Assembly: GCA_030390025.1 (NCBI GenBank)
Contig: CM059449.1
Span: 15,190,001 to 15,254,000, forward strand
Direction of reading: 5' to 3'
DNA length: 64,000 nucleotides
From: Squalus acanthias
Lineage: Eukaryota
In this document: piece after piece, positions 1 to 55,128 of the stretch
Numbering within the stretch: the stretch's first letter is position 1
Layout of the letters: every line of letters begins with the position of its first letter
Notes under the pieces: generated by a model
What the model was told of the DNA's origin: nothing
Seen by the model: the letters and a program-made list of their open reading frames with translations, nothing else
Databases searched by the model: none
Program-made: the position numbers and the translations under genes

Positions 1-248
1 AGAAGCAAATGAAATAATTGGTATCGAATGAAGTGAATTAAATTTTGGGGGCAATTTTAACCAAACACGCGGAGAAACGGACGGGATCGGGGGCAACGTC
101 TTGAAGTCAAATGAGAGCAATATTGGGCGGGTCTAAACCCGGAGTTCCACCCGATCCCCTGCATTTCCCGCCCGGTGAATTAGGATAAAATTACCAGAGA
201 ATTTGCCAACCACATGGAATTTAGTAGAGGTACACTTAGTGCTGTTAC

Positions 249-380
249 CTCTCTTACGATGCCGGCTGATAATAATAACGACTATGATGATGATGATGAT
301 CAGGAGAGGAACCGCTACCGCTGCATAGACGAGTGATGGGATCATTGGTGCGGACTCGCCGTGGCTGCTCTCTCCACCAC
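249..380 (-). CDS. Gene A stalk/transmembrane exon of NKp30-like receptor (SGGESSHGESAPMIPSLVYAAVAVPLLIIIIIIVVIIISRHRKR); cytoplasmic exons lie beyond the window start
   Basis: Acceptor tttacacacAG and donor AG|GTAACA, phase 1-1. Hydrophobic run followed by a basic stop-transfer. Paralogous to 12617-12748 and 33929-34054. Confidence 0.85.
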
Positions 381-1939
381 CTGTGTGTAAATGTAAAGTT
401 TCTTTTGTGAGACAGAGCAGTCAAGAACAGGGCAATGGTCACATTGAGATTGAGTATCAGCAAATGTGACACTGATTCCCAATCCTCTTTGACATGCGGG
501 GCTATTTCACACTGGCATACATCAAACTAGGCCACCGATCAAAACGCAAAATGTCACCAGTGGACAACTGGAGATATTCCCACCCTGGAAGTAACACTGG
601 GAGAATGTTAATGCAGGGACGCTTAATGGGTTGGTGCCAGTTTCCTTTCTTTTAAATAGCGGGGGTGGGGTGGGGATCGTGTGAGTTCTGTTAACATAGG
701 AACATAGGAACAGCAGGAGGCCATTCAGCCCCTCCAGCCTGTTCCACCATTCAATGAGATCATGGCTGATCTGTGACCTAACTCCATATACCCGCCTTTT
801 GCCCAATATCCCTTAATACATTTGGTTAACAAAAATCTATCAATCTCCGATTTAAAATTCACAATTCACCCAGCATCAGTTGTCGTTTGAGGAAGAGAGC
901 TCCAAAGTTTTACCACCCTTTTGTGTGTGTAGAACTGTTTCCTAATTTCACTCCTGAAAGGTTTAGCTCTATTTTTTACGCCATGTCCCCGAGTCCTAAA
1001 CTCCCCAATCAGATGAAGTTATTTCTCTCTATCTACCATCTCCGTTCCCCTTAATATCTCGAGAGTGTCCCGCCCAGTTTTCTTGAATTCACTAGACCCT
1101 GGAGATCCAATTGGATCCTGAGCACGAACGAGAAAATCTTCCCCTCCTATTTGCTGGATGCTTAAGACAAATCGAACATCTGGAAATTAGACGTGCCGAG
1201 ACTGGGTGATCAATGCAGTTCTTCTGCGGACCCATCTTTGCATTTTGTTGGCGCGCAATGTTGTAATTTCCATTTACGCACACAACTATATCCGTCAGTA
1301 CCTCCATTTACAAGATGACAGTGAAATCTAACGTATCATAGATGTGTGGAACGGTTTATTCCTAATATTGTCACGCGGTGATTTCAAGGCTCAAGTGTTG
1401 CTCTTATTACTGGGCTCTAGTCTTCGCCTCGCATACTGTAACTGGGTTGACTACTTATCTATAGTCATACCTAAAATTGTATACAGCAACTGAGTGTAAT
1501 TAATATCCCCTCCATTCATTTATTTTAAAAGGTCATTCTCGGGATACGGGCGACGCTGGCGAGGCGGGCATGTTATTGTCCATCTCTGGTTCATCCCTTG
1601 AGAAGGTGGTTGTGGGCCGCCTTCTTCTTGAACTGCTGCAGCCCGGTGTGGTGAAGGTTCTCCCGCAGTGCTGTTAGGGAGGCAGTTCCAGGGTTTTGGA
1701 AGGAACAGCGATACAAGTCCAAATCAGGCTGGTGTGTGACTTGGAGAGGAACTTGGAGGGGATGGCGTTCCCATGCTTCTGCTGCCCTTGACCTTCTAGG
1801 TGGTGGAGATCGCGAGTTTGGGAGTTCCAATTGATAGAATGGAGAATTTACCGAAACTGACAATATTACCCCCTAGAAAAATCCCATATGATTGCGTGAA
1901 ATTTCATTGGTAAGAATATCTCCACCAATCCAAACTTAC

Positions 1940-2290
1940 TGTATTGACGCCGTTCCACGGTCACTTTTGTCCCGGGTCCGTCTGCTGCAGCGAATCCCAC
2001 GAGCTCCACTTTGCAGAAATAGAACCCGGTATCTTCCGGTTTCAGCTGGATGATTCTAATCGACGCGTTTCGCCTTTGGCTGAAATCCTGTCCACTTGCC
2101 CCGAACACCCTGCCTCTGTATTCCGCTGTATTGTTGGAAACTTCATTTCCCTGTTTGTTGCCTCGGTGCCACGTGTAGCTGCCAATTCCTGTGGGACCCT
2201 CATATCGACAGAGCAGGTCCGCTGTCTGTCCCGCGGTTTTGGTGAGAGATTGCGGGTTCTGAATTACGGTGATGTTTCCAACAGTAACTG
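1940..2290 (-). CDS. NCR3: Gene A second Ig V (VJ-type) exon, NKp30/NCR3-like
   Basis: 351-nt phase 1-1 exon (cttgcAG|CAGTT ... A|GTAAGT). Has C, W, D-x-G-x-Y-x-C and J-like GPGTKVTV. Motifs GIGSYTW, EVSNNTAEYRGRV and CKVELVG mirror human NKp30 AIGSVTW, EVRNGTPEFRGRL and CRVEVLG. Symbol denotes family, not proven orthology. Confidence 0.88.
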
Positions 2291-2506
2291 CTGCAAGTGG
2301 GTAAAACACACCATTTATAAATATACAGGGTACTTCTTTGCTTCAAAGCACGCCGTGGAAGGGCTGGTGGTGGAGGTCGCGAGTTTGGGAGTTCCAATTG
2401 ATCGAATGGTGAATTTACCTTTACGGACAATATTACCCCCTGGAAAAATCCCATATGATTGCGTGCAATTTCATTGGTAAGAATATCTGCACCAATCCAA
2501 ACTTAC

Positions 2507-2857
2507 TGTATTGATCCCGTTCCACGGTCACTGTTGTCCCGGTTTCGTCTGCTGCAGTGAATCCCACGAGCTCCACTTTGCAGAAATAGAACCCGGCATC
2601 TTCCGGTTTCAGCTGGATTATTCTAATAGACGCGTTTCCCCTCTGGCTGAAATCCTCTCTACTTGCCCCGAACACCCTGCCTCTGTATTCCGCTGTATTG
2701 TTGGAAACTTCATTTGTCTGTTTGGTGCCTCGGTGCCACGTGTAGCTGCCGATTCCTCTGGGACCCTCATATCTACAGAGCAGGTCCGCTGTCTGTCCCG
2801 CGGTTTTGGTGAGTGATTGCGGTCTCTGAATTACGGTGATGTTCCCGACAGTAACTG
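2507..2857 (-). CDS. NCR3: Gene A first Ig V (VJ-type) exon, NKp30/NCR3-like
   Basis: 351-nt phase 1-1 exon, open frame, both Cys and Trp intact; J-like motif altered to DETGTTVTV. Confidence 0.88.
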
Positions 2858-3378
2858 CTGCAAGTGGGTAAAACAGAACATTTATAAATATACAGGGCAC
2901 TTCTTTACTTTAACGCAGGCCGTGGAAGGGCTGGTTTTAAGCAAATATTATTTCGGAGGATTTTTGATAAGTTATTCCTGATCTTTAACTTGAGGGAATA
3001 AAAACAGAAAATACTGGAAACGCTCAGCAGGCCAGGCAGCATCTGTGGAGAGAGAAATAGAGTCAACGTTTCAGGTCTATGACCTTTCCTCAGAACTGGA
3101 AAAAGTTGGGGATGTACCAGGTCTTCAGCAAATGTAGGGGCCAGGAAAAGGGGGAGGGGAGGAAAGAACAAAAGGGAAGGTCTGTGATAGAGTGGAAGGC
3201 AGGAGAGATTAAATAACACAAGGGACGATGGGGCAAGAGAAAAGGAGATGGTAATGGGACAAGTTATGAAACAAAAGATGGGTTTAGAGGAGGAGTACAT
3301 GGTTAGCTTGAGGGATATTGGTGCTGGAACTGGAGCGCCTTTGGTTTTTAGGCGCACTCCTACGTCAAGTATAGAATG

Positions 3379-4601
3379 ATGCGGAGATGCCGCTGTTGGA
3401 CTGGGGTGGATAAAAGTGAGAAGTCGCACAAAACCAGGTTATAGTCCAACAGCGTTATTTCAAATCACAAGCTTTCGGAGCGCTGCTCCTTCGTCAGGTG
3501 AAGTGAAGAAATACATATGGGCACAGCATAAATAGTCAGAGAACAATGCCAGACGACTACAGTTAATCTTTCTAACTGCCCTTTATCACACCTCGGCAGA
3601 GAGACAATCACGGCAATCAAAGGTGTGGTTGGTGTCCAACCAGGTCAGTCAGGAAGACATTACATCAAAGACAATAGCAAAATACAACAAAGACAATGAG
3701 GTGGGGTCACAAGGGGTCAAATGTGGCAGCTGCTGGAGTCTGTATGGAAAACAATTTTTTTGTAAACTTTTTTTGCTGGAAATTACAGCAGGCCGCATCT
3801 GTTTAGAGAGAACAAGCCAGCGACGACTCGAGTCTGGATGACTCTACGTCAGGTGCGGTTACAGGTAGCGTGACATGAACCCAAGATCCCGGTTGAGGGC
3901 ATCCTCATGGGTGCGGAACTTGGCTATCAGTTTCTGCTCGATGATTTTGCGTTGTCGTGTGTCTCGAAGGCCACCTTGGAGAACGCTTACCCGAAGATCG
4001 GAGGCTGAATGTCCTTGACTGCTGAAGTGTTCCCTGACTGGGAGGTAACAATCCTGCCTGGCGATTATTGCGCGGTGTCCGTTCATACGTTGTCGCAGTG
4101 TGTGCATGGTCTTGCCGATGTACCATGCTCCGGGGCATCCTTTCCTGCAATGTATGAGGTAGACAACGTTGGCCGAGTCACATGAGTATGTACCATGTAC
4201 CTGGTGGGTAGTGTCCTCACGTGTGATGATGGTATCTGTGTTAATGATCTGGCATGTCTTGCAGAGGTTGCCGTGGCACTCCAGCAGCTGCCACATTTGA
4301 CCCCTTGTGACCCCACCTCATTGTCTTTGTTGTATTTTGCTATCGTCTTTGATGTAATGTCTTCCTGACTGACCTGGTTGGACACCAACCACACCTTTGA
4401 TTGCCGTGATTGTCTCTCTGCCGAGGTGTGATAAAGGGCAGATAGAAAGATTAACTGTAGTCGTCTGGCATTGTTCTCTGACTATTTCTGCTGTGCCCAT
4501 ATGTATTTCTTCACTTCACATGACGAAGGAACAGCGCTCCGAAAGCTTGTGATTTCAAATAAAGCTGTTGGACTATAACCTGGTGTTGTGCGACTTCTCA
4601 C
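3379..4601. mobile_element. Penelope-like retroelement, fold-back insertion with GIY-YIG endonuclease fragment (minus, about 3859-4277)
   Basis: ORF with NVVYLIHC..WYIGKT..LRQRMNGHR. Inverted terminal arms. 14-bp flanking duplication tcaagtatagaatg (3365-3378, 4602-4615); empty site in paralogs near 15352 and 36445. Confidence 0.9.
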
Positions 4602-6417
4602 TCAAGTATAGAATGGATCTGGTACAAAGTACTTCTGCCCCGTTCCAAATAATAAGCATTCACTTTAATTTCAGTTCTCCCGATATGCTTTCTGTGCAGC
4701 CCCCGGTCTCATTTACACTTTGAGCTAGGGTGTGAAATGGGCAATCTCGAAGCCCGATATTCTCTTCCATTTGGGGGTCATTTTAACTTTGGGTGCTAAA
4801 TGGGCGAGGTCGGGTCGGCTGCCTCAAATTACAACGGGCGGATGATCCGATGTCGCCCGTTTCAGACGCTCGCGTAAAGTCCAAATCACCTCCAACAAGT
4901 GATGAGAAGTTTAATCTCATTAGTCTGATCAGATTGGAAGTCAGATAGATGCTAAACCCCAGCACCTTCTCACTAATAATCAGCGGTGACCGGAGAATAT
5001 GTAAAATTCAAACAGAATATTAATAGTCAAAATAATAAATCGATCTGAATGTCCTCAGCTTGTTACATGTAGTGACATTACAAATTGGATGAAAGATTTC
5101 CCACTTTGGGTATACCTTGTAAAACCGCCAATACCTCTTTAATTTGTTTTAATGATTTTGCTACAACTACGGATCAGAGAAAATAGTCAATGCACTTGCG
5201 ACCTCGTTCCGCGCAGCAAGCAGCGCTACTCTTGCCCTGTGCTGATAACTAGAGAAAGTTTGTATCCAATTAAACTGCGAGAAATAATATGAATTGAACA
5301 ATGAAAATGTCATGCCCTCTGGAAACGGGTGTTTACTTGAACACAGCCAGCACTCCAAATATTCACTCCAAGGACTGTTGTGGATACAGAATCTTGACAT
5401 TTTTGGTAGATATAATATCGTAGAATCATAGAATAATACAGCAGAGAAGGAGGCAGTTCGGCCCATCGTGTCTGTGCCGGCTGTTTCGAAGAACAATCCA
5501 GTTAGTCCCACTCCCCCCTCTCTTTCCCCCTATCCCTGGAATCTTTTTCTCCTTCAAATATTTGACCAATTCCCTTTTGAAGGCAAATTGAATCTGTATC
5601 TACCACCCTATCAGGCAGAGTACAAGGGCAATCTATACTTCAGGGAGCAACATACATTATGCTTTCCTGGGCCAGATACAGTAAACCTCTTTACCCGAGA
5701 GCTGATCCGTCTCTCACATTGAGCTCTCTCTTTCTCGCTCTGTCTTCCTCAGTCTCTCTTTCTGTCTCTCACACACACGCACGATTGGAACCCATTTCTC
5801 TCTCTCTCTCTCTCGTTTCCTATTGCTATCCATCACTTCTTGATTTAACTCGTCTTCCCTCCCACTATTTGCATCCTTGATGCTGTCCTTCGCCATGGGC
5901 GATTGGCGCTTCACCTAAATGCCTCAATTCAAAATAAGCAACCTCGAAAGCGTTAGCTTCACTGTGGCGAGCCCTGGTTAACTGGGAGATTGATTATATT
6001 ACCAGGACATAATTCATTACCACGGCGCTGAGATACTAAGATGGTTAATCTCGCGTCTATGAGAATTTCCGCACAAACCTGATGTTTTATGATTTGCAGG
6101 CGAGCTGGTCATGAATATAAAATTGGTTAAATCCACAATCTGGTGCTGTGATCAGCAAATATGGGATATCGGAATAAGATTTAACCAGATACACATATAA
6201 ATAAAAAAAAATGGATGGGAGGACATCGCTATGGGTATTTAATATCTAATTAAGACACACAATATTTCATTAAAGTCATTACGAAATAATGGAAATTAAA
6301 TCCAGTCAATTTCAATAAAATGCGGCCACTCCGAAACGCCAGCTTTACGCTCAGGCGGCAAGTTGAAAATCTACCCCATATTCTTGAATGTATCTGATGT
6401 GTCAGAAATAAGCTTAC

Positions 6418-6484
6418 CGGAGAACATAGCGAATGCCCAGGTAACTGCAGCCCAATTCATTCTCCCTGTCGGCGGTGATATCAT
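6418..6484 (-). CDS. Gene A leader exon (MISPPTGRMNWAAVTWAFAMFS|A)
   Basis: ATG at 6484 (second in-frame ATG at 6460), hydrophobic stretch, donor G|GTAAGC in phase 1 matching the V exon, which supplies AVTVG/NITV. The same exon precedes copy D at 46398. Confidence 0.8.
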
Positions 6485-13815: not shown

Positions 13816-14005
13816 ATGATGCGGAGATGCCGGTGTTGGACTGGGGTGGACAAAATTGAGAGGTCGCACAACACCAGGTTATAGTCCAACAGTTTTATTT
13901 GAAATCACAAGCTTTCGGAGCTATCGATTTGCTCCTTCCTCCGAAAGCTTGTGATTTCAAATAAAACTGTTGGACTATAACCTGGTGTTGTGCGACCTCT
14001 CAATT
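13816..14005. mobile_element. Short Penelope fold-back (pLTR inverted repeat)
   Basis: Arms of about 65 bp in inverted orientation; flanking duplication ttgactacttatc (13803-13815, 14006-14018); absent from paralogous introns at ~1450 and ~35130. Confidence 0.85.
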
Positions 14006-17000
14006 TTGACTACTTATCTACAGCCCTACCTAAAATTGTATACAGCAACTGAATGTAATTAATATCCCCTCCATTTATTTATTTTAAAAGGTCATTCTCG
14101 GGATACGGGCGGCGCTGGCGAGGCGGGCATGTTATTGTCCATCTCTGGTTGACCCCTTGCGAAGGTGGTGGTGGGCCGCCTTCTTCTTGAACTGCTGAAG
14201 TTCAGTGTGGTGAAGGTTCTCCCGCAGTGCTGTTAGGGAGGCAGTTCTGGGATTTTGGAAGGAACAGCGATACATGTCCAAATCAGGCTGGTGTGTGACT
14301 TGGCGGGGGATTTGGAGGTGATTGTGTTCCCATGCGCCTGCTGCCCTTGACCTTCTGGGTGGTGGAGGTCGCGGTTTTGGGAGTTCCAATTGATCTAATG
14401 GAGAATTTATCTCTACGGCCGATATTACCCCTAGCAAAATCCCATATGATTGCGTGCAATTTCATTGGTAATAACATCTCCACCAATCCAAACTTACTGT
14501 GTTGACGCCGTTCCACGGTCACTGTTGTCCCGGTTCCGTCTGCTGCAGCGAATCCCACGAGCTGCACTTTGCAGAAATAGAACCCGGTATCTTCCGGTTT
14601 CAGCTGGATTATTCTAATGGACGCGTCTCCCCTCTGGATGAAATCCGCTTCACTATCCCCGAACACCCTGCCTCTGTATTCCGCTGTATTGTTGGAAACT
14701 TCATTTCCCTGTTTGTTGCCTCGGTGCCACGTGTAGCTGTCGATTCCTGTGGGACTCTCATATCTACCGAGCAGTTCCGCTGTCTGTCCTGCGGTTTTGG
14801 TGAGAGATTGCGGGCTCTGAATTACGGTAATATTTCCAACAATAACTGCTGAAAGTGGGTAAAACAGACCATTTATAAATTTACAGGGCACCTCTTTGCT
14901 TTAAAGCACGCCGTGGAAGGGCTGGTTTGAAGCAAATATTTGTTCGGAGGATTTTTGATAAGGTATTCCTGATCTTTAACTTGAGGGAATAAAAACTGAA
15001 ACACTGGCTACACTCAGCAGGCCAGGCAGCATCTGTGGAAAGAGAACCAGAGTTAACGTTTCAGCTCCATGACATTTCGTCAGAACTGAAAGGTTGGAGA
15101 TGTACCAGGTTTTAAGCAATTGCAGAGGCAGGGAAAAGGAGGAAGGGGAGGATAGAAGAAAAGGGAGGGTCTGTGATAGAGTGGAAGGCAGGAGAGATTA
15201 AATGACAAAAGGGATGATGGTGCAAGACAAAAAGAGATGGTAATAGGACAAGTAAAGAAACAAAAGATGGGTTCAGAAGGGGTGTGAATGGTTAACTTGA
15301 GGGATATTGGTGCTGGAGCTGGAGCGCCTTTGGTTTTTGGGATCACTCCATGTCAAGTATAGAATGGATCTGGTACAAAGTACCTCTGACCCGTTCCAAA
15401 TAATAAGCATTCACTTTAATTTCAGTTCTCCCGGTATGCTTTCTGTGCTGCCCGCCGCTCTCATTAACACTTTGAGCGAGGGTGTGAAATGGGCAATCTC
15501 GAATTAAACGCCTTGCCCGATGTTCTCTTCCATTTGGGTGCCATTTTAACTCTGGGTGCTAAATGGGCGAGGTCGGATCGGCTGCCTGAAATCAAAATCG
15601 GGGCAGGTGTACAACTGCGGCTGATCCGATGTCGCCATAGCTCTCCATATATCTTTCTACTTCTTTTCTTGATCTGTCTTTGCATTTCTCACTGTCTGCT
15701 TTCTGGTTCTCAGTTTCTCTCACTGGTTCTCTGTGAATTTGGGAGTGATGAAACAGGAGAATGAAAGATGTTTTATTTAAATTTGGAGAGACAGGCGTTG
15801 AGGGTCCCTGGGTTACATTCTGGGACCAGTGGGGGACACACGCAGGCTGTGCAAAGACTGGTGTCCTGTATCTCTAATTCTTTTCATTATATCTCTGTAT
15901 CTCTACAGTTTTCTTTATATCTCTATTCCTCTCTCTCTATGTGCCTATCTGTATGTCGATCTCGCTTTATATTTCTGTATCTCTCTGTACCTTTCCTTTA
16001 TAACTTTATAATTTTGTATTCCTTGAAATCTCCACATCTCTCTCTTTGAAACTCTCAGAATGTCTGTTCTCTTTTTCTCTCAGGATCCCTCTCAGGCCTA
16101 TTATTTGAGAGAGACATTTTAAACTTAAACAGAACCTGCTCCAAAGACACAAGAGATGCGGAACTAGAATGTGTGCCAACACCTTCTGCCTCATCTGGAC
16201 TGGGAACCTTGGGTTTTGTACATTCCACCATCTCCTGTCCATACAATAAACACCTTGCATCCTGTGTAGTTCAGAACAGATTAACAGATCAGGAAAAGCA
16301 TGTCCCTTGCCAGAGTGCTGCCCTGGGCTATCCATGGATTAGCAGGTCAATGGACAGGCCCCCTAGCGAGCAAAGCCAACATGTCAATGGCTAAAGGGGT
16401 GGAGTCTGCAATCTGCTCACCTGGTGGGGGCGGGTTGTGGGTGGTAAGATCCAAGTCCCAATCCTTCCTCCCTCCAGAATAAGGGACGTCTCTCAGTCTG
16501 CTGTGTGTGTGTTTGTTGTGCTGTGTGCAATTTCTCTCTGTCTCAATCTTTAACTCTTTAGATTCTCTGGTTTCTAAGCGGGGTTTACTTGTAATGTGAT
16601 GTTGTCGAGAGATTGTCTGTGTAACTGAGAGAGGGAGCCCTGGGCTCTTGCTGTGCTTTTTTTTGCTTTGTTTCTCCACCAATCTCTTTTCTCTCTCTCT
16701 TCTCCCAAGGACATATTTTATATTTGCAAAGCTGTAACAAGATGCAGAGAAAGCGTGAGAGCTTTGGGACAAGGAATACCTTGGACAAGATCTTCCTCCG
16801 CAGTGGACAATCCGAGGCCTTCACCAAAGGCTGCACCCAAATGGCCCACGTGAGTCTATGTCTGTTTATAACCCCGGGGTTTAATTTCCTCTTGGGGAGC
16901 CTGGGATTCTGGTGCCTCGGGTTAACTTGTTCCTGTTGGATTGTGCGCCTTGAGTTTCCAACAGGTTTAAAGCCTGGGGTTAAAGTAGCCCCGGCCTTGC

Positions 17001-17054: not shown

Positions 17055-19532
17055 GAAATTAAAGTCCTCAACGTGTACCCGTGTTAAAATTACAGAATAA
17101 TGCTGGTGTTTTGAGCAGTGCGATTAATTTGACATTTAAATGAGTGTGCGTTGTCCATTTTAATTCATTTTACTGGTGTTCCGAGCGTGGATTTATTACT
17201 GTGTCTATTTCACTCCAGCTTTCTCTGTCTCTCTCCATCTTTCTTTGTCTCTCTCCATCTTTCTCTGTTATGTGGCTCGATGTCTAATTTTGTTTTATAC
17301 CACTCCTGTGAAGCGCCCTGGGAGGCTTTACTACATTAAAGGCACTATACAAATATAAGTTGTTGTTGTTGTTGTTATCTCAGCTTTCCCCGTCTCTCTC
17401 CAGATTTCTCTCTCTCTCTCTAGCTTTTTCTCTCTCTCTCCCGCTTTCCTCTCTCTAGCTTTTTCTCTCTCTCTTTGCAAAGCAACCGAATTTTTCCCCC
17501 TTAACATCTAATAAATGCCGCCCACAGCAATGTGATTTGTCATCATTTTAAGTGATAGACAGAAACATTTCAAAGTACATGTCAATCAAGATTAAAGCTG
17601 AGATAAAGAGAAAGAAAGAGAGAGAGAGCGCGGATGAGTGAAAGAAAAAGAGGGCCAGAGATGAGGACTTAGATAGGAACAGAAAGAGGGGGAGAGTGAA
17701 CAAAAGAGGAGAGATGCGGATGCACTGTAACATTTAATGTACGCACAGCACAAATCCTGGGCCGAACGGGTACAGAGCACAGAGTGAGAGAGGCACGGGG
17801 ATCGCCAGTGTTTGTTTTTTCATAATGAGGCAGACGGCGACTTTAATAAGTGTCCCAAAGGAATCAACAGCTTAATCCCTGTTTAAAGAATGAGTTCTGC
17901 ACTTTCTGGGGAGTGAGGGGTTGTCCGCAGGCTTGGAATACATGCCGGGGGAGGGCGGGTTACAGCGGGCGAGTGGGGGCGGGGGGACGATAGGGAAGGA
18001 GTAGGTCCCATTCCCCACTTGCTCCTTTCAGCCTGTCTGTGAGGTTGGGTGTGAGCTGTGGGTGGAATCGAGCGGTTTCACTGGGGCCTGTTCTTGGCCC
18101 CGCTCCCCTGTGTGGGTTCAGCGTTTGAGATTTTCAAACTGCAGTAATGTTTCTCTGTCTATCACCTTCTGTATCACTCACTCCAGAGTTACACACCTTT
18201 CTGTTCCTCTCCACTGTTGGTGTCTCTCTATCACTGCACAGAGAGTTACGCACCTATCTCTACCTCCCTCTGCTGGTGTCTCTCTCTCATGCCCTGGGGC
18301 CAATATTTATCCCTCAACCAACGTCACTGAAACCGATCATCTGGTTATTATCACATTGTTGTTTGTGGGAGCTTGCCGTGCACAAATTGGCTGCCACGTT
18401 TGCTGTACAGCGCTCCTGAGGTTGTGAAATTAAAGTCCTCCACGTGAACTCGTGCAAAGGCTTGTTATTGAATAATACTGGTGTTTTGGGCGATGCGATG
18501 ATTTTTTCGGTTTAATGATATGCGTGGTGGCCATTTTAATTCATTTTACTGATGTTCTGAATGTGGGGTTATTACTGTGTCTATTTCACTTCATCTTTCT
18601 CTGTGTCTCTCTCCATCTTTCTCTGTTATGTGGCTCGATGTCAAATTTTGTTTTATAACGCTCCTGTGAAGCGCCCTGGGAGGTTTTACTACATTAAAGG
18701 CACTATACAAATACAAGTTGTTGTTGATGTCTCTCTTCAGCTTTCCCCATCTCCCTCTCTAGACCTTTAACATCTAAAAAATGCACACATGGCAATGTGA
18801 TTTGTCGTCATTTTAAATGGTAGACAGAAACATTTCAGAGAACATTTCAATCAAGATTAAAGCTGAGATAGAGAGAAAGAGAGAGAGGAGAGAGAAAGAT
18901 AGCAGATGAGTGAAAGAAAGAGAAAGAGGGACAGAGATGGGGACCTAGAAAGGAACAGAGAGAGAGGGGGAGAGATCATGAAAGAGAGAGAGAGAGAGGG
19001 GGGAGAGAGAGAGATTTTGCTTTATAACAATCCTGTGAAGTGCCCTGAGAGGTTTTACTTTGTTAAAGGCATTATATAAATACAAGTTGTTGTCTCTCTC
19101 CATCTTTCTCTGTCTCCCTCTCGAAACCTTTAACATAGAAAACATGCCACACACAGCAATGTATTTTGTCTTTATTTTAAATGGTAGAGAGAGACATTTC
19201 AATCAAGATTAAAGCTGAGATAGAGAGAAAGAAACAGAGAGAGAGAGAGAGAGAGAGAGCAGATGAGTGAAAGAAGGAAAAGAGGGACAGAGATGGGAAC
19301 CTAGATAGGAACAGAGAGAGGCGGAGAGAGAACAAAAGAGGTAGAGATGGGGAGAGAGAGATTGGGACAGAGAGAGAGAGAGGGACATAGATGGAGGTGA
19401 CTGCTAAATGCCAGAAGTGGAAGATGCACTGTAACATTTATTATATGCACAGCACCAATCCTGGCCCGAGCGGGTACGCGGCACTGAGAGGGAGAGGCAC
19501 GGGGATCACCAGTGTTTGTGTGTTTACAATGA
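17055..19532. repeat. Local degenerate tandem duplication (about 17055-17830 vs 18427-19532) with CT/GA microsatellites and L2-like tails
   Basis: Shared blocks gaaattaaagtcctc.., ctctgttatgtggctcgatgtc.., caatcaagattaaagctgagata.., gcacggggatc.ccagtgtttg. Confidence 0.7.
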
Positions 19533-21497
19533 TGTGGAGATGCCGGCGTTGGACTGGGGTGGACAAAAATGAGAAGTCGCACAACACCAGGTTATAGTCC
19601 AACAGATTTATTTAATTTTACAAGCTTTCGGAGCAGTTCGCTCCTTCGTCAGGTAAGTTTAGCAGTGAGAGAATCTCCCAGAATTCACAATTTAAACACA
19701 GACAAAATATATTCAAATCTTTCCTTACATCAAAGCGCATAGCCAAGACAATGAGATGTGTCCCAGGGGGTCCAACGTGTCAAACCACCTGCTGGCTGCA
19801 TATCCTGTCAATCTGTGTAGGTTCTTGTGTTAGCCTTTTTTAAAAAAAAACACCTGGGAAGACCGGCCATGATGTCAAGTCACGTTCTGTATCGTGACAT
19901 GAACCCGATATCGCGATTGAGGCCATCCTCATGAGTGCGGAACTTGGCTATCAGTTTCTGCTCTATGATTTTGCGCTGTCGTGTATCTCGAAGGCCGCCT
20001 TGGAGAACGCTTACCCGCATATCCGAGGCTGAATGCCCCTGGCTGCTGAAGTGTTCCCCGACTGGGAGGCAACCCTCCTGCCTGGCGATTGTTGCGCGGT
20101 GTCCGTTCATACGTTGTCTCAGTGTCTGCATGGTCTCGCCGATGTACCATGCTCTGGAGCATCCTTTACTGCAACGTATCAGGTAGACAACGTTGGCCGA
20201 GTCACATGAGTATGTACCGTGTACCTGGTGGGTAGTGTCCTCACGTGTGATGATGGTATCTGTGTCCATGATTTGGCATGTCTTGCAGAGGTTGCCGTGG
20301 CAGGGTTGTGTGGTGTCTTGGTTGCTGTTCGCCTGAAAGATGGGTAATCTGCTGCGAACGATGGTACTTTTGAGGTTAGGCGGCTGCTTGAAGGCGAGTA
20401 GTGGAGGCGTGGGGATGGCCTTAGCAAGGTGTTCGTCGTCATCGATGACATGTTGAAGGCTGCGAAGAACATGGCGTAGTTTTTCTTCTCCGCGGAAGTA
20501 CTGGACGACGTAGGGTACTCTGTTGGGACACAACCAACAGAGTACCCTACGTCGTCCAGTACTTCCCCGGAGCGGAAAAACTACGCCATGTTCTTCGCAG
20601 CCTTCAACATGTCATCGATGACGACGAACACCTTGCTAAGGCCATCCCCACGCCTCCACTACTCGCCTTCAAGCAGCCGCCTAACCTCAAAAGTACCATC
20701 GTTCGCAGCAGATTACCCATCTTTCAGGCGAACAGCAACCAAGACACCACACAACCCTGCCACGGCAACCTCTGCAAGACATGCCAAATCATGGACACAG
20801 ATACCATCATCACACGTGAGGACACTACCCACCAGGTACACGGTACATACTCATGTGACTCGGCCAACGTTGTCTACCTGATACGTTGCAGTAAAGGATG
20901 CTCCAGAGCATGGTACATCGGCGAGACCATGCAGACACTGAGACAACGTATGAACGGACACTGCGCAACAATCGCCAGGCAGGAGGGTTGCCTCCCAGTC
21001 GGGGAACACTTCAGCAGCCAGGGGCATTCAGCCTCGGATATGCGGGTAAGCGTTCTCCAAGGCGGCCTTCGAGATACACGACAATGCAAAATCATAGAGC
21101 AGAAACTGATAGCCAAGTTCCGCACTCATGAGGATGGCCTCAATCGCGATATCGGGTTCATGTCACGATACAGAACGTGACTTGACATCATGGCCGGTCT
21201 TCCCAGGTGTTTTTTTTTAAAAAAGGCTAACACAAGAACCTACACAGATTGACAGGATATGCAGCCAGCAGGTGGTTTGACACGTTGGACCCCCTGGGAC
21301 ACATCTCATTGTCTTGGCTATGCTCTTTGATGTAAGGAAAGATTTGAATATATTTTGTCTGTGTTTAAATTGTGAATTCTGGGAGATTCTCTCACTGCTA
21401 AACTTACCTGACGAAGGAGCGAACTGCTCCGAAAGCTTGTAAAATTAAATAAATCTGTTGGACTATAACCTGGTGTTGTGCGACTTCTCATTTTTGT
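19533..21497. mobile_element. Penelope-like element as a ~1.93-kb near-perfect palindrome with two opposed GIY-YIG ORFs
   Basis: Arms 19563-20526 and 20534-21497, 7-bp spacer gacacaa; mirrored ORFs 19880-20533(-) and 20791-21180(+); flanking duplication tgtttacaatga. Confidence 0.93.
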
Positions 21498-35937: not shown

Positions 35938-37295
35938 CTGTAAGTGGGTAAAACAGACTATTTATAAATATACAGGGCACTCCTTTGCTTTTAAGCACGC
36001 CGTGGAAGGGCTGGTTTTAAGCAAATATTGGTTCGGATGATTTTTGTTAAAGTATTCATGATCTTTAACTTGAGGGAATAAAAACAGAAAACACTGGAAG
36101 CGGTCAGCAGGCCAGGCAGCATCTGTGGAGAGAGGAATAGAGTCAACGTTTAAGGCCGATGACTTTTCGTCAGAACTGGAAAAAGTTGGAGATGTAACAG
36201 GTCTTAAGCAAATGTAGGGGCAGGGGAAAGGGGGGAAGGGAGGAAGAACAAAAGGGAAGGTCTGTGATAGAGTGGAAGGCAGGGGAGATTAAATGACAAA
36301 AGGGATGATGGTACAAGTAAAAAGGAGATGGTAATGGGACAAGTAAAGGAACAAAAGATGGGTCTAGAAGAGGATTAAATTGTTAACTTGAGGGATATTG
36401 GTGCTGGAACTGGAGCGCCTTTGATTTTTGGGCGCACTCCTCGGTCAAGTATAGAATGGATCTGGTACAAAGTACCTCTGTCCCGTTCCAAATAATAAGC
36501 ATTCACTTTAATTTCAGTTCTCCCGATATGCTTTCTGTGCTGCCCGCCGCTCTCATTAACACTTTGAGCGAGAGTGTGAAATGGGTAATCTCGAATTAAA
36601 CGCCTTGCCCGATGTTCTCTTCCATTTGGGGGCCATTTTAACTTCGGGTGCTAAATAGGTGAGCTCGGGTCGGCTGCCTGAAATTAAAATCGGGGCAGGT
36701 GTACAACGGGCGGCTGATCCGATGTCGCCCGTTTCAGTCGGTCGCACAAAGTCCAAATCACCCCCAGGAAGTGAGGGGAAGTTTAATCTTATTAGTCTGA
36801 TCAGAATGGAAGTCAGATAGGTGCCAAACCCCAGCGACCTTCTCTCTATTAATCAGCGGTGACTGGAGAATATGGGAAATACAAACAGAATATTAATAGT
36901 CAAAATAATGAAACGGGATAAATGTTACATGTAGCGACATTACAAATTGGATGAAATATTTCCCACTTTGGGTATATCTTGTAAAACCGCCAATACCTCT
37001 TTACAAATTGTTTATGATTTTGCTACATCTACGGATCGGAGAAAATAGTCAATGCATTTGCAACCACGTTCCGCGCAGCAAGCAGCGCAACTCTTGCCCT
37101 GTGCTGATAACTAGAGGAATGTTGTATCCAGTTAAACTGTTAGTAATAATATGAGTTGAACATATCTCTTTCTCTCTCACACACACACGCGATTGGAACC
37201 CATTTCTCTCTCTCTCTTTTCCTATTCCTATCCATCACTTCTTGATTTAACTCGTCTACCCTCCCACTATTTCCAACCTTGATGCTGTCCACCCA

Positions 37296-38290
37296 CGTAA
37301 CTGAAGTTCCTTATCCCCGAACCATTCTCGTAAATCTTTTCTGCATCCTCTCTAAGGCCTTCACATCCTTCCTAATGTGTGGTGCCCAGAATTGGGCAAA
37401 ATACTCCAGTTGAGGCCAACCCAGAGTTTTATAATGTATCATCATAACTGCCATGCTTTGTACTCTATGCCTCTATTTATAAACCCCAGTATCCCATATT
37501 CTTTGTTAACCGCTTTCCCAATCTTGTGCACATATAACCCCAGGTCTCTCTGTTGAGGCACCCACTTTAGGATCGTAACCTTTAATTTATTTTGCCTCTC
37601 CTCGTTCTTCCTCCCGAAATGTATCACTTCGCACTTTCCTACGTTAAATTTCATCTGCCACGAGTGGTGAAGCTCCAATTAACGTATCTTCCACTATCAT
37701 TAATTGATGTTACTGGGTGTCCATTTTTGTTCGAATAATTTCGGATCAATGTATCCGTACATGAAATACAGCAATCTGTCAATTAACGTTGTACAATTAT
37801 TATGAATTGAGCCCAGATAGATCGGTCACTGCGGGGAAGGATCTCATTTCCAAGGGTCACACTTTAGACGTTAACTAGTTAGCTGTAAGAAGGGAACTTA
37901 GGCGGAAACTGTTCCCCTATAGAGTAAAAGATTTCTGGAACAAGTTACTGGAGACGGCAGTGGGAGTGGGCAGTACAAACAGATTCAAGAGACAACATGT
38001 GTGTTTTTAGAAAAAAAGTAGCCTTGACCTGTCAAACAGGGACAGTTTTTTTTTTGACATAATGATCTCATGTGTCTCACAATTTACAAGCTATTGTGAA
38101 GAATTTAAATGCTGATTGATCCAGCAATCATTGAGCTACAAACCGGTATTCAGCTGTCATTACATTGGGTCCTTTTCCCGTTTCTCAACGCAACCTTGGG
38201 AAATTGCACTCCATAATCAGATTGAACAGAGGTATACATTCGGAACCTTTATGGTGCCAAAATTAGAGGCAATTGTCACTTTATAAAGGT
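37296..38290. repeat. Duplicated copy of gene C intron-1 segment (about 39820-41580, without the MITE)
   Basis: Collinear match: CR1 piece, then ..gtatcttccactatc.., gcccagatagatcggtcact.., ttgagctacaaaccggtattcagctgtc. Confidence 0.85.
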
Positions 38291-38988
38291 GGATCTGTTG
38301 TAGAAGGCGGCTCACCACCACCTTCTCAATGGTAACTTAGGATGGGCAATAAATGCTAGGCGACGCCCACATATCAGGAACGTATTAAAAATATAGAAGG
38401 CATGTTTCCTTTTATATGGTGCGGGGATAAAACCGCACAGTGCTCTGGTCAGGTGGCATCTTGAGTATTGTGTTTAGTTCTGGTCACTCAGGCTCAAGGG
38501 AGACATGTAAGACCCGGAGGAGAAGTGAACGCTAGCCTGTTCCCTCGTGTTCTAGTGCGAGGTTATGAGAGAAAAAAAAGACTAGAAAAGCTCGGACTCA
38601 TTAACTTTGTAAAAAGGGACGAACATAGCTGCCTTAACAGAGATATGTAAGGTGCCAAGCATGAAAATCAAGGGATAATGCGAAGTACTATTTTGAGATA
38701 ACCCACACCTTCAGGTGGTGGGTTGGGCTTTGGGGGAGTAGCCTGAAGCTCGTGTAATCCTATTATTAAAGCACCGCGCCTTGAATAGTCAGATTCTAGT
38801 TAGATATATGGCACTTTCAGGATATTAATTGTCGACCAATTGTTCTGGATGTACTTTGAAAGTGATATTGACACACGGACACAATTCAGTACACCGAACT
38901 GAAATCTTTTAGTACAGCACATGTACAGCCATTCCAATGCCAAAATATTGGTAAATTCTTAAAACGAACTCTGATCTTTTTTACTCAC

Positions 38989-39384: not shown

Positions 39385-40212
39385 AGTAGAGAATTATAGA
39401 ATGGTTACAGCACAGAAGGAGGCCATTCGGCCCGTCGAGCCCGTGCCGGCTCTCTGCAAGAGCACTTCAGCTAGTCCCACTCCCCCGCCCTTTCCCCTTA
39501 GCCCTGCATTTTTTTCCTTCAGGTACTTATCCAACTCCCTTTTGAAAGCCACGATTGAGTCTGCCTCCACCAACCTTTCAGGCAGTGCATTCCAGGTCCT
39601 AACCACTCGCTGCGTAAAAAGGTTTTTCTCATGTCGCCTTTGGTTCTTTTGCCAATCGCCTTAAATCTGTGTCCTCTAGTTCTCAACCCTTCCACCAATG
39701 GGAACAGTTTCTCTCTATCTACTCTGTCTAGACCTCTCATGATTTTGAACACCTCTGTCATATCTCTTCTCAACCTTCTCTGCTCTAAGGAGAACAACTC
39801 CGACTTCTCTAGTCTATCCTCGTAACTGAAGTTCCTCATCCCTGAATCATTCTCGTAAATATTTTCTTCCCCATCTCTGAGGCCTTCACATCGTTCCTAA
39901 AGTGCGGTGCCCAGAATTGGACACAATACTCCAGTTGAAGCCGAACCAGTGTTTTGTAAAGGTTCATCATAACTGCCTTGCTTTCGTACTCTATGACTCT
40001 ATTTATGAAGCCCACTATCCTGTAAGCTTTGTTCACCGCTTTCTCAACCTGCCCTGCCACCTACAATGATTTGTGCACATATACCCCCAGGTCTCTCTGT
40101 TCATGCACCCACTTAATGATCGTACCCATTAGTTTATTTTGCCTCTCCTCGTTCTTCCCACCAAAATGTATCACTTCGCACTTTCCTGCGTTGAATGTCA
40201 TCTGCCACGAGG
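39385..40212 (-). mobile_element. CR1 LINE 3' fragment in gene C intron 1
   Basis: LEYCVQFWAPHF, RRLRRDMTEVFKIMRGLDRVDRE. Confidence 0.85.
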
Positions 40213-40544
40213 GGTGAAGCTTAAATTAAAGTATCTTCCACTATCACTAACTGATGTTACTGGGTGTCCATTTTTGTTAGAATGAGTTCGGATCAATTTA
40301 TCCGTACATGAAATACCGCAACCTGTCAATTAACGTTGTACAATTATTATGAAATGAGCCCAGATAGATCGGTCACTGTGGGGAAGGATGTAATTTCCAA
40401 GGGTCATACTTTACACGTTAACTAGTTAGCAGTAAGAAGGGAAGTCAGGCGGAAACTGTTCGCCTTTCGAGGAAGAGATTTGTGGAACAAGTTGCTGGAG
40501 ACGGCCGTGGGAGTGGGCAGTACAAATAGATTGAAGAGACATAC

Positions 40545-41287
40545 TGGCCCAAAAATTCGTGAGGAAGCCTTCGTGCGAGGGTAAGGCCTCCCCGCGATCT
40601 CTCACTCTGCGTTGGCTTTTTCAGTTCCAGCTCGCACGAACTTGATGTTCTGGACAGCTGCTGTGCTGGGCTTGCCTATCCCACCGGCGTAGTTAATTCG
40701 TGCGAGCTGTGGGATCACGTGACTCAGTTAGAGGCCAATGGAAGCACACCATCTTCCATTCATAACTTTCACATAAGTGCTGTGAAAGTTATGAATACTA
40801 TAGCCCCCCAAAAGAACCGCTAAACCTCAATAAAATTAAAAAAAACATCACATTAATAAAATAAGTATAGTTAAATAAATTAACCATTTTAAATAAAAAA
40901 TTAAATCTTTGAAAAAATTTAAAATCTTTTAAAAAGTTATAAAAATAAACTTACCTGTCTTTAAAGTCTCTAAAAAAGATATACCTGTTAAAAAAAATCA
41001 AAATAATACTTAATTCACTACTTACCTTGTTAAAAGTGGGTCTTACTCCTCCTTTTTTTATGTGTAGAATCTTCCGCACTTACCTGCGCGTTGAAACCAC
41101 TAATTGCACAGCGTGCGCGCAGCCTGTAGCGCGCACGCGGTTCACCTAGGACCCGCCCCCTTTTCCATTCACCAAGTGCCGGTTTTTAGCGCATGCGCAG
41201 TGCATGCAGAAAACCGGCAATTGGAGACAGAATAGGCGAGAGTACGCAGTGCGGACTCTCGCGTAGCGGCACAAATTTTTGGGCCAA
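40545..41287. mobile_element. MITE-like TIR element, copy 2
   Basis: TIR tggcccaaaaatt / aatttttgggcca; empty site visible in the duplicated segment at ~37995. Confidence 0.85.
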
Positions 41288-42206
41288 TGTGTGTTTCTGG
41301 AGAAAGAAGCATTGATCTGTCAATCAGGGACTGGGTATTTGTGGACACAATGATCTCTTGTGTCCCAGAATTTACAAGCTATTATGAAGAATTTAAAATG
41401 CTGATTGATCCATCAATCATTGAGCTACAAACCGGTATTCAGCTGTCATTACATTGGGTCCTTTTCCAGTTTCTCAACGCAACTTTGGGAAATTAAAGTC
41501 CATAATCAGATTCAACAGCTTTTTACATTCAGAACCTTTATGGTGCAAAAATTACAGGCAATTGTCACTTTATAAAGGCGGTTCTGCTGTATTTCCACGC
41601 ACTTGGTTTTCTTTGCAAAACTATTGACATAATATAATCACCACTTCCCAACGCAGTTCTATTTCACCGTCCTACTAGGGGAAGATTTCACTTCTGTCAT
41701 CTTTAATCATTTAAGACGGAAACCTGTCCTTTATAGTCTGTTAATTGTAAGTATGAAAACTTTGGAAATGTGTTGAATATGAATCGTTTGCTAATGGAAT
41801 AAATTGTGTCGAACGCAAAGACGTTGAATTGTCGAGTAGAAGGTATAATGTCAGATAATTCCACGTGTAACACAGTCGGTTAGGAGTCCGTGAGGTAATT
41901 TATTTCCATAAGTACATTTTAGTAGGCCCTATTAATATGTTAATTTTTAATGCAAATTCACAGCATCTGCATGGAGGAGAACGTTAATGTGTATAATATA
42001 TATATGTAAAGTTCCCCGAAAGATAAAATACCGTTGAAATGGTGGATTCAACGCAAAGTAACACAGCGAAATAAAATAATTTATTTTACACACTGTAACT
42101 TCGTTATATATTAGGTCTGCATAAGGAAACAACCTGCCCAACCAAGTAACCGATATTCTTAATAAATATAGAATTAAACTGTGATCATCAGAAGATAGCG
42201 ACTCAC

Positions 42207-46224: not shown

Positions 46225-47446
46225 AGAGCGAGAGAGAGAGACAGAACCATGTGCGAGAGAGATAACTGCGGTTGTATATACAGCTTGCAATTCATTTTTT
46301 TTCCATTCCCTCACATCCGGACTCTGACTCAGGTTCACTCTCCCACTGCATTACTCAAATATTCCTGTCTGTACACGATCTGAATTTCTTTTCTGAAATG
46401 ATATCACCGCCGACAGGGAGAATGAATTGGGCTGCAGTTACCTGGGCATTCGTTATGTTCTCCGGTAAGCTTATTTCTGACACATCAGGTCCATTCAAGC
46501 AGATTTTCAACTTGCCGCCTGAGCGTAAAGCTGGCGTTGCGGTGCGGCCGCCTGTTATTGAAACGGACTGATTTTAATTTCCATTATTTCATACTGACTG
46601 TAATGAGATATTGTATGTCTTAATTAGATATTAAAAACCCATAGCGATGTCCTCCTATCTATTTGTTTTCTTATTCATATGTGTATCTGGTTAAATCTTA
46701 TTCCGATATCCCATATTTGCTGATCACAGCATCAGATTGTGGATTTAACACATTTTATATTCATGACAATCTCACCTTCAATTTAAAAAACATCAGGTTT
46801 GTGCAGACATTCTCATAGACGCGAGATTAACCATCTTAATTTCTCAACGCCGTGGTAATGAATTATGTTCTGGTAATATAATCAATCTCGCAGTTAACCA
46901 GGTCTCGCCTTAGGGTAACGCTTTTGAGGTTGCTTATTTTGAATTGAGGCATTTAAGTGAAGGGCCCATGGCCCATGGCGTAGGACAGCATCAAGGTTGG
47001 AAATAGTGGGAGGGAAGACGAGTTAAATCAAGAAGTGATGGATAGGAATAGGAAAAGAGAGAGAGAGAGAGAGAAATGGGTTCCAATCGTGCGTGTGTGT
47101 GTGAGACAGAAAGAGAGACTGAGGTAGACAGAGAGAGATAGAGAGAGCTAACCATGAGAGACGGATCAGCTCTCGGGTTACGAGGTTTATTGTATCTGGT
47201 CCAGGAGAGCACAATGTATGTTGCTCCCTGAAGTACATATTGCCCTAGTACTCTGCCTGATAGGGTGGTGGATACAGATTCAATAGTAGTCTTCAAATTG
47301 GAATTGGACAAATACTTGAAGGAGAAAAATATTGCAGGGATGGGGGAAAGACTGGGGGAGTGGGACAAACTGGATCGCTCTTCGAAAGAGCTGGCGCAGA
47401 CTCGATGAGCCGAAAGGCCTCCTTCTCTGCTGTACTATTCTATGAT

Positions 47447-48141
47447 GTGGAGATGCCGGTGTTGGACTGGGGTGGACAAATGTGAGAGGTCGCACAACAC
47501 CAGGTTATAGTCCAACAGATTTATTTGAAATCACAAGCTTTCGGAGCGCTGCTCCTTCGTCAGGTGAAGTGAAGAGATGCATATAAGCACAGCATATATA
47601 GTCAGAGAACACTGCCAGATGATTACAGTTAATCTTTCAAACTGCCCTTTATTACATCGTCAAGCAGAAACTGATAGCCAAGTTCCGCACCCATGAAGGC
47701 GGCCTCAACCGGGATCTTGGGTTCATGTCACACTACATGTAACCCCACCCTACGTAGAGTCATCCAGACTCAAGTCGTCGTTGGCTTGTTCTCTTTACAC
47801 AGATGCGGCCGGACCTGCTGTGATTTCCAGCAAAAAAAGTTTTTTGTTTTCCATACAGACCCCAGCATCTGCCACCTTTGACCCCTTGTGAACCTACCTC
47901 ATTGTCTTTGATGTAATGTTTTCCTGACTGACCTGTTTGGACACGATCCACAACTTTTATTGCCGTGATTATCTCTCTGCCGAGGTGTGATAAAGGGCAG
48001 TTAGAAAGATTAACTGTAATCATCTGGCAATGTTTACTGACTATATATGCTGCGCCTATATGCATCACTTCACTTCACCTGACGAAGGAGCAGTGCTCCG
48101 AAAGCTTGTGATTTCAAATAAAGCTGTTGGACTATAACCTG
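47447..48141. mobile_element. Penelope fold-back insertion in copy D intron 1
   Basis: Inverted pLTR arms; flanking duplication gtactattctatgat (47432-47446, 48142-48156); empty site in gene A at ~5425. Confidence 0.87.
48078..48112 (+). ncRNA. Minimal hammerhead ribozyme motif in Penelope pLTR (others: ~3466-3500 -, 19620-19653 -, 21407-21440 +, 47533-47565 -, 62777-62808 +)
   Basis: CTGACGA-aggagc agt gctcc-GAAA core with a stem II hairpin; Penelope-like elements are known to carry minimal HHRs. Confidence 0.7.
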
Positions 48142-49308
48142 GTACTATTCTATGATTCTATTATATTACATCTAACAAAAAATTCAATATTCTCCATCCA
48201 CAGCAGTCCTTGGAGTGAATATTTGCAGTGCTGGCTGTGTTGAAATAAACACCCGTTTCCAGGGGGCATGACTTTTTTTTTGTTCAATTCATATTATTTC
48301 TAGTAATTTAACTGGATACAATCTTTCTCTAGTTACCAGCATAGGGCAAGAGTTGCGATGCTTGCTGCGCGTAACCAGGTCGCAAATGCATTGATTATTT
48401 TCTCTGATCCGTTGTTGTAGCAAAATCATAAACAATTTTTAAAGTGTTATTGGTGGTTTTACAAGATATACCCAAAGTGGGAAATCTTTCATCCAATTAG
48501 CAATGGCGCTACATGTAACAAGCTGAGGACATTTAGCCCGTTTCATTATTTTGACTATTAAAATTCTGTTTGAATTTTACATATTCTCCCGTCGCCACTG
48601 ATTAACAGTGCGAAGGTCGCTGTGGTTTACTACCTATCTGACTTCCAATCTGATCAAATTAAGAAGATTAAACTTCTCCTCACTTGCTGGGGGTGATTTT
48701 GAATTTTTCCGACCGACTGAAACGGGCGACATCGGATCAGCCGCCTGTTTAACACCTGCCCCGATTTTAATATCAGGCAGCCGACCCGACCTCGCCCATT
48801 CAGCACCCAAAGTTAAAATGATCCCCAAATGGAAGCGATCATCGGGCAAGGCGTTTAATTCGTGATTGCCCATTTCACACTCTCGCTCAAAGTGTCAATG
48901 AGAGCGGCGGGCAGCACAGAAAGCATATCGGGAGAACTGAAATTAAAGTGAATGCTTATTATTTGGAACGGGACAGAGGTACTTTGTACCAGATCCATTC
49001 TATACTTGACCTAGGAGTACACCTAAAAAACCAAAGGCGCTCCAGTTCCAGCACCAATATCCCTCTAGTTAACCATTTAAACCTCTTCTAGACCCATCTT
49101 TTGTTTTCTTTACTTGTCCCATTACCATCTCCTTTTTACTTGTATCACCATCCTTTTGTCATTCGATCTCTCCTGCCATCCACTCTATCACAGACCTTCC
49201 CTTTTGTTCTTTTCTCCCTTCCCCCGTTTCCCTGCCACGACACTTGCTTAAGACCTGGTACATCTGCAAACTTTTCCAGTTCTGACGAAAGGTCATGGAC
49301 CTGAAATG

Positions 49309-54452: not shown

Positions 54453-54548
54453 GAGGAACTGCGAACCTTACTGAAGCCGGTCCAGGACAAGAAGAAGGAA
54501 TGTGACGCTGTAAAAAGTGATTATGTGGAAACATTAACCCACATTCAG
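54453..54548 (+). CDS. TRIM (RBCC) gene coiled-coil exon, 96 nt (EELRTLLKPVQDKKKECDAVKSDYVETLTHIQ)
   Basis: ctttgttcAG acceptor, CAG|GTACAT donor; a 96-nt phase 0-0 exon is typical of TRIM exon 2. Confidence 0.8.
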
Positions 54549-54894: not shown

Positions 54895-55128
54895 GACCAA
54901 GGCGTAAAGACAGAGAAACAGATTAAAGCAGAATTTGAAAAACTTCACCAGTTTCTCCGTGAGGAGGAGAGGATTGAGTTGGAAGATCTGAAACTGGAGA
55001 AAGAGAAAAACAGTCAGGAGATGAAGGGGAGGATTGAGAAGATAACGGAGGAAATCTCATCGCTTTCAGTCACTGTTCAGGATATTGAACAAGAGCTGAG
55101 TGAACAGGACAGCATCAAGTTTTTAACG
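54895..55128 (+). CDS. TRIM gene coiled-coil exon, 234 nt (TRIM35/A33/NF7-like)
   Basis: KQIKAEFEKLHQFLREEE..ISSLS..IEQEL..DSIKFL; phase 0-0. RING/B-box exon not seen, presumably in or before the gap. Confidence 0.87.

Follow-up and report, generated by a model that had tools for sequence, protein, structure and literature searches.

How does a one-domain receptor gene of the NCR3 family turn into a potential two-domain one? The NCR3/NKp30 genes encode non-rearranging VJ receptors of interest for how antigen receptors originated. In sharks they form a multigene family, and NCR3 has several subtypes there. In the window, which is the whole stretch of 64,000 nucleotides that was analysed, a shark NCR3-family gene carries two V exons in tandem, and this duplication is real and old. 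The locus therefore records the passage from one domain to potentially two at base resolution, with a breakpoint that is intact and common to another sample. The features of the duplication are the following.

1799..2935, no strand: full extent of the tandem duplication, two units repeated with period 567
2366..2368, plus strand: junction, 3-bp microhomology GGT, bridged by a public-run contig
2507..2857, minus strand: V exon A (V_A), membrane-distal, 351 nt, phase 1-1, open, with Glu104 at codon 2546-2544
1940..2290, minus strand: V exon B (V_B), membrane-proximal, 351 nt, phase 1-1, open, with GxG retained
2291..2506, minus strand: intron between V_A and V_B, 216 nt, made by the duplication

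Self-comparison of the window aligned 1799-2368 with 2366-2935 at a period of 567 bp, with 41 substitutions in 567 positions and no indels. The 567-bp tandem exon duplication proposed in a sequence-only reading is thus borne out, and so are its two 351-nt V exons with a 216-bp intron. Tandem Repeats Finder, whose periods are limited to 500, gave no call for the 567-bp repeat. On the minus strand, V_A (2857-2507) and V_B (2290-1940) have an identical acceptor (TTTTACCCACTTGCAG/CAG), an identical donor (ACA/GTAAGT) and identical final 16 intron bases, while 24/351 exon positions and 17/216 intron positions differ. Neither exon contains a stop, and 13 of 116 residues differ between them, as expected from the earlier view of two open copies diverged in amino acids. 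Phase symmetry of exons is, on textbook grounds, expected to favour change in domain number. The symmetric phase-1 structure that had been claimed was found in both V exons, and inclusion of both, either or neither of them preserves the frame. The intron between them consists of 141 nt of the old downstream intron and 75 nt of the old upstream intron; it has in-frame stop codons and must be spliced out, by which a read-through product was ruled out.

The two units overlap by GGT at 2366-2368. A junction microhomology had been anticipated at 3-4 bp; it is present, and its size is exactly 3 bp, never 4. A random join would give at least 3 bp with P = 0.052, so the fit to template switching or end joining is suggestive only. 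The sequence shows a head-to-tail copy, joined at GGT, of a 567-bp piece that comprised the one V exon, 75 nt of the intron before it and 141 nt of the intron after it; the mechanism was probably microhomology-mediated template switching or end joining.

Four public runs (DNA-type contigs) were aligned to positions 150-3050 of the window. Among the 32 contig pieces listed out of more than 112,000, one from run X6 (depth 2.8) spans 2258-2470 with 8/213 differences and no gaps, reaching 108 letters to the left and 102 to the right of the microhomology (96% alike). Run X6 is labelled organism B, which may differ from the species of the window. As a control, every single-V copy in the window mismatches 2258-2470 at at least 90 of the 213 positions. 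Raw data with a single exon had been named as what would speak against the duplication; the bridging contig carries the junction, which argues that the duplication is no assembly artefact. A 500-N gap elsewhere in the window and the many near-copies would suit an assembly in which two alleles were set side by side, but an independent contig that bridges the exact junction, with more than 100 letters on each side, makes this scarcely credible. No bridging piece occurs among the 24 listed from organism A (runs X2, X3 and X5), which is uninformative on absence, and contig depth in these runs is no measure of copy number. At 2309, the X6 contig has the letter common to V_A and the three paralogs in the window, unlike that of V_B itself, which suggests from one contig of depth 2.8 that two haplotypes parted after the junction arose.

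The host gene of the doubled exon is, by its sequence, a minus-strand NCR3/NKp30-like gene of elasmobranch type. Besides the V exons, the following parts of it were located.

6418..6460, minus strand: leader exon, MNWAAVTWAFAMFS, with phase-1 donor G/GTAAG (G then GTAAG); 12/15 residues match the N-terminus of the Heterodontus protein P0004
249..380, minus strand: short stalk and transmembrane (TM) exon, 132 nt, phase 1-1

Another in-frame ATG lies 24 nt farther upstream of the leader exon, and the cytoplasmic exons lie past the left window end; judging by the 14.8-kb paralog, the first of them would start ~64 nt outside the window. The two V exons match the Pfam V-set at E 9e-13 and 6e-13, and NKp30 is the top solved-structure match by sequence (E 1e-11). 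A single-sequence fold prediction was discarded (pLDDT 41). In a predicted model of V_A with a mean pLDDT of 91, for which NKp30 fills the first four ranks of a fold search, a putative helix at 66-72 matches the position of the NKp30 alpha-2 helix. In PMC3135353, the ligand groove of NKp30 is formed by the alpha-2 helix beside the FG strands, and from Table II of that source 11 B7-H6 contact positions were taken. As aligned, V_A and V_B are each identical to mammalian NKp30 at 6/11 of these positions, and at the equivalent of the contact Glu111 both have Glu and the three paralogs Gln. The likeness to human NKp30 is one of sequence, fold, alpha-2-type helix and contacts; human NKp30 has one V domain, whereas the shark gene has two V exons and an uncharged TM. 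NKp30 activates via a charged TM residue. The hydrophobic stretch of the TM exon (380-249) is without a charged residue, unlike that of activating mammalian NKp30. The NCR3/NKp30 genes are named as MHC-region VJ genes in two papers (PMC12227049, PMC10751288).

The closest database proteins, at 67-68% V-domain identity, are nurse shark QTT61898.1 (NCR3, P0005), Heterodontus XP_067865395.1 (P0004) and likewise a Scyliorhinus model; identity to Chiloscyllium GCC38504.1 (P0011) is 61%. A protein tree of 112 columns was built from 50 proteins chosen by eye from the 150 listed matches of one search and from the longer-length search with V_A. Its deep forks are open and SIRP-like rows are unseparated from the family; being weak at depth, it was used for its shallow starred clades only. 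In this tree, the subtype of P0004, P0005 and P0011 and the window gene form one clade at 99/97. They have in common the leader, a V encoded in one exon with a J-like G strand, in which V_A has lost the first Gly of GxG, and an uncharged TM. In each of the six outside members of the clade a lone V precedes the TM or the sequence end, whereas the V exon is doubled here. A two-V form of this subtype was absent from a longer-length search with V_A (3 proteins, hence weak evidence), and a near-length protein search with V_B gave no match.

Relatives of the doubled exon and further parts of the cluster lie elsewhere in the window.

14848-14498: V exon at 14.8 kb, first Cys changed to Gly, no leader found
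35937-35587: V exon at 35.9 kb, open, no own leader found
50797-51147, plus strand: V exon at 50.8 kb with a stop codon; its leader at 46422 looks intact
29590-29483, minus strand: terminal exon present once in the window, lying downstream of the 35.9-kb V and carrying the ITIM-type motifs LQYATV and VLYASV
39327-38988, minus strand: NCR3-like V exon of divergent sequence, sharing 32% identity with V_A
42264-42207, minus strand: leader-like exon of the 39.3-kb V
~38785-38600, minus strand: proline-rich stalk and Arg-containing TM stretch, frameshifted, read by eye

Of the three paralogous V exons of this subtype, two are broken, and likewise a leader is lacking for two of the three, so decay is common in the cluster. 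An N gap stands where the TM exon of the 50.8-kb paralog would follow. Among the four same-subtype genes of the window, only the two-V gene shows leader, intact V and TM together. The terminal exon at 29590-29483 resembles the tails found in P0004 (Heterodontus) and P0011 (Chiloscyllium). The sequence-only reading had called the tandem duplication a second, independent route to a two-V receptor. This is doubtful, since the candidate first route would join 39327-38988 to 35937-35587, and the 39.3-kb V seems to have a leader of its own and, as read by eye, a frameshifted stalk/TM exon. The 39.3-kb V may be a decayed activating-type gene rather than half of a fused two-V gene, though a fused transcript might exist there. 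A database search with the ~38785-38600 region found no significant match. The region upstream of the 35.9-kb V matches the intron of the two-V gene up to ~37290 only. Farther on, at 37287-38302, it is made up of copies of segments (39812-40541 and 41287-41591) from the intron that precedes the 39.3-kb V.

The distances within this set bear on the age of the duplication. The V_A-V_B distance of 41/567 is slightly below the distances to the paralogs (~9-10%), and five letters are common to V_A and V_B and absent from all three paralogs. A DNA tree of the whole unit pairs V_A with V_B (SH-aLRT 92.8, bootstrap 84), as does one of the downstream intron (90.1/91), and they fail to group in the exon-only and upstream-intron trees. 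The protein tree shows no V_A-V_B pair, placing V_B with the 50.8-kb copy (100/80) and V_A with the 35.9-kb copy (99/63). By these comparisons the duplication is an old event, little younger than the paralogous V exons of the window, and the simplest reading of the sequences is a duplication inside one gene shortly after the paralog split. Alternatively, the units may come from two diverged alleles or paralogs, by a template switch between them or through later gene conversion, in which case the 7% divergence would overstate the age of the junction. The nearness of the V_A-V_B distance to the paralog distances, the exon and protein trees that leave the copies apart and some sites that unite V_A or V_B with a paralog give this origin some weight, but the five private letters and the unit tree join the copies, and the 8 differences of the X6 contig, with its shared letter at 2309, indicate at depth 2.8 that substitutions postdate the junction. 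On balance we consider it unlikely, though worth keeping in mind; it is independent of the readings of the gene product discussed below.

Whether both copies are maintained was approached through their substitutions. The Cys pair, the Trp, three N-glycosylation sequons and the GT/AG sites are all present in V_A as well as in V_B. Between them dN/dS is 0.60 (8 synonymous, 16 non-synonymous; Fisher p 0.32), for pairs with broken paralogs it is 0.61-1.07, and for V_B against the intact 35.9-kb copy it is 0.41 with p 0.044 (one of 10 pairs, uncorrected). In a neutral simulation of substitutions, with indels left out, both copies were stop-free in 31-37% of cases, and in 13-18% they also had Cys/Trp/Cys and GT/AG intact. 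Open frames and amino-acid divergence are within neutral expectation, so openness is weak evidence, and purifying selection on V_A and V_B is unproven. Comparison of profile scores with the neutral simulation was rejected as a selection test, for a stop-carrying paralog looked "constrained" (0.015) much like V_A (0.030).

Such figures allow that the whole gene is unexpressed or non-functional within a birth-and-death cluster and that its exons are open by chance. The neighbours are indeed broken, by loss of a Cys at 14.8 kb and by a stop at 50.8 kb, and some have no leader; the tail of the gene lies outside the window. Yet leader, V_A, V_B and TM exon show no defect and have canonical splice sites, and the low ratio of V_B against the 35.9-kb copy, uncorrected as it is, also tells against this reading. 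A dead gene is doubtful on this evidence.

The two copies are unequal in their state. V_A has Glu at residue 104, where Gly is found in 67/67 outside family domains and in 4/4 other window copies; this Glu stands where the J-like GxG motif, which is kept in V_B, has its first Gly. V_A also has Thr47, against Gly in 47/66 family domains, departs from the window majority by 16 changes (11 in V_B) and scores lower on the family profile (122.7 against 130.0). The distal copy V_A hence shows signs of drift or change, and Glu104 could also be a sequence error. According to PMC11599192, the GxG motif implies a beta bulge, affects the ligand affinity of CTLA4 and is absent from CD28. Since CD28 does without GxG, Glu104 may alter V_A and need not destroy the domain.

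From the same changes one may construct a one-V receptor made through V_B, in which V_A is a relaxed spare that is mostly skipped, with the leader spliced in frame to V_B, and decays slowly. Glu104, Thr47, the larger number of changes and the lower score fit this course; the fact that V_A, free of indels, retains its two splice sites, Cys/Trp/Cys, sequons and Glu95 does not, nor does the lack of GxG in some members of the CD28 family, CD28 included (PMC11599192). We regard it as an unlikely outcome, though by no means a far-fetched one.

A two-V receptor is the most likely product of the gene as judged from its exons, and we give it about an even chance. Full splice signals, phase 1-1 and 351 nt in both exons imply that the default transcript, leader-V_A-V_B-TM, would be in frame, and single-V skip forms, also in frame, might arise as minor products. 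Such a receptor would combine two V domains with an uncharged TM; V_B looks like the conserved domain, and V_A, more altered, may bind differently or chiefly lengthen the receptor. Inhibitory signalling seems most likely by analogy with the 35.9-kb paralog and Heterodontus P0004, each of which has a tail that closes with a pair of ITIM-type tyrosine motifs.

Tandem exons may also be used one at a time, and V_A and V_B could then give two one-V isoforms of different specificity. This fate is known for some tandem exons from PMC8373072, which catalogues either-or use in human genes; its cases are adjacent homologous exons in one gene, as here, and either-or use in the shark gene would be hypothetical. 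A difference at a contact would suit it too, as the equivalent of NKp30 Ser82 (a B7-H6 contact, position 66) is Arg66 in V_A and Gly66 in V_B. However, the 216-nt intron and the kept frame enforce no exclusion, the 25 longest of 58 inverted repeats include no strong pairing of a unit with a flanking intron, and most tandem exons become constitutive according to the same source (PMC8373072). The intron length, the frame and these 25 repeats show no obstacle to including both exons, whether steric, by frame or by RNA pairing; one imposed by protein factors would leave no such mark. Mutually exclusive use is improbable. Differences between V_A and V_B are not enriched at ligand contacts (1/11 positions, ~1.2 expected). 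Across the five window V copies, position 66 holds R, G, E, K and G, which is four residues.

A fuller picture would be that a two-V inhibitory receptor of the NKp30 family is conserved across related sharks, in which V_B keeps the ancestral ligand site, V_A, with its GxG glycine lost and a contact position changed, has gained a new ligand or geometry, and in-frame skipping switches the gene between one-V and two-V forms. We rate this whole as quite doubtful. If true, a two-V inhibitory receptor with a dated breakpoint would offer a clean test of the evolution of domain number and specificity in the oldest NK-receptor family.

The earlier proposal that domain number is changing repeatedly in the family could be compared with gene models of relatives. 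Models with 2-5 V domains occur in five elasmobranch genera and in amphibians. The XMIV genes of Xenopus also possess two or more V.

Mobula XP_062903898.1: gene model with 5 V; another Mobula model has 2 V
Heterodontus XP_067865773.1: gene model with 3 V
Chiloscyllium XP_043533794.1: gene model with 2 V, 83% alike
Scyliorhinus XP_038671255.1: gene model with 2 V
Pristiophorus: gene model with 2 V
Bombina, Leptodactylus, Hyperolius and Mixophyes (frogs/toads) and Lissotriton (newt): multi-V amphibian models
Polypterus: multi-V model

At least 2 domains were found in 23 of the 50 tree proteins, and in 16 after removal of 6 SIRP-like or outgroup rows and of P0003; multi-domain proteins score higher in such searches, so these counts are no frequencies. 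P0003 was rejected as a two-V protein, for it looks like two merged neighbour genes with a TM between the V domains. In six proteins (P0010, P0012, P0030, P0035, P0050 and P0071) the domains of one protein form a starred clade of their own, and V domains 2-5 of Mobula are 85-97% alike, both of which point to separate duplications. On gene models, then, repeated change of domain number is upheld, and a doubled V is ordinary for the NCR3 family. These models resemble the window gene in their tandem V, short linkers and, in several, sister domains; they differ in being of other subtypes, mostly computer gene models and variously named. NKp30-like proteins with 2-5 V are filed as pIgR-like, SIRP-beta-like, turtle-like or uncharacterized, among them P0008, P0009, P0010, P0014, P0015 and P0016 and, in amphibians, P0012, P0027, P0030, P0050 and P0071.

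The emergence of multi-V genes several times in elasmobranch and amphibian relatives may outweigh this single locus in worth, and a survey seems worthwhile. As a mechanism, the doubling of a symmetric Ig exon in tandem is ordinary, so the value of the case lies mainly with specialists in comparative immunology. We found no paper describing multi-V NCR3 genes, but this is weak evidence, since Kinlein et al. 2021 and Flajnik et al. 2012, with their supplements, may already do so, the former reportedly dealing with the shark NCR3 family.

Some further observations concern the surroundings of the duplicated exon. A tandem NAGNAG acceptor (CAG CAG) is present on all five same-subtype V exons, e.g., at 2857-2855 and 2290-2288. 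Heterodontus isoforms (P0004 against P0006 and P0007) differ by one Ala at this site, so both acceptors are probably used. The intron between leader and V_A carries an insertion.

3379..4602, no strand: insertion in the leader-V intron, outside the duplication, with 325-nt inverted arms and a 14-bp direct repeat at 3365-3378/4602-4615

A reading frame in this insertion resembles, in translation, the GIY-YIG endonuclease of Penelope-type elements, a tentative label. Similar insertions with long inverted arms lie at 19529-21497, 47442-48143 and 13816-14008. On the plus strand, open exons at 54453-54548 and ~54895-55128 are coiled-coil-like, and we take them to resemble middle exons of the TRIM family.
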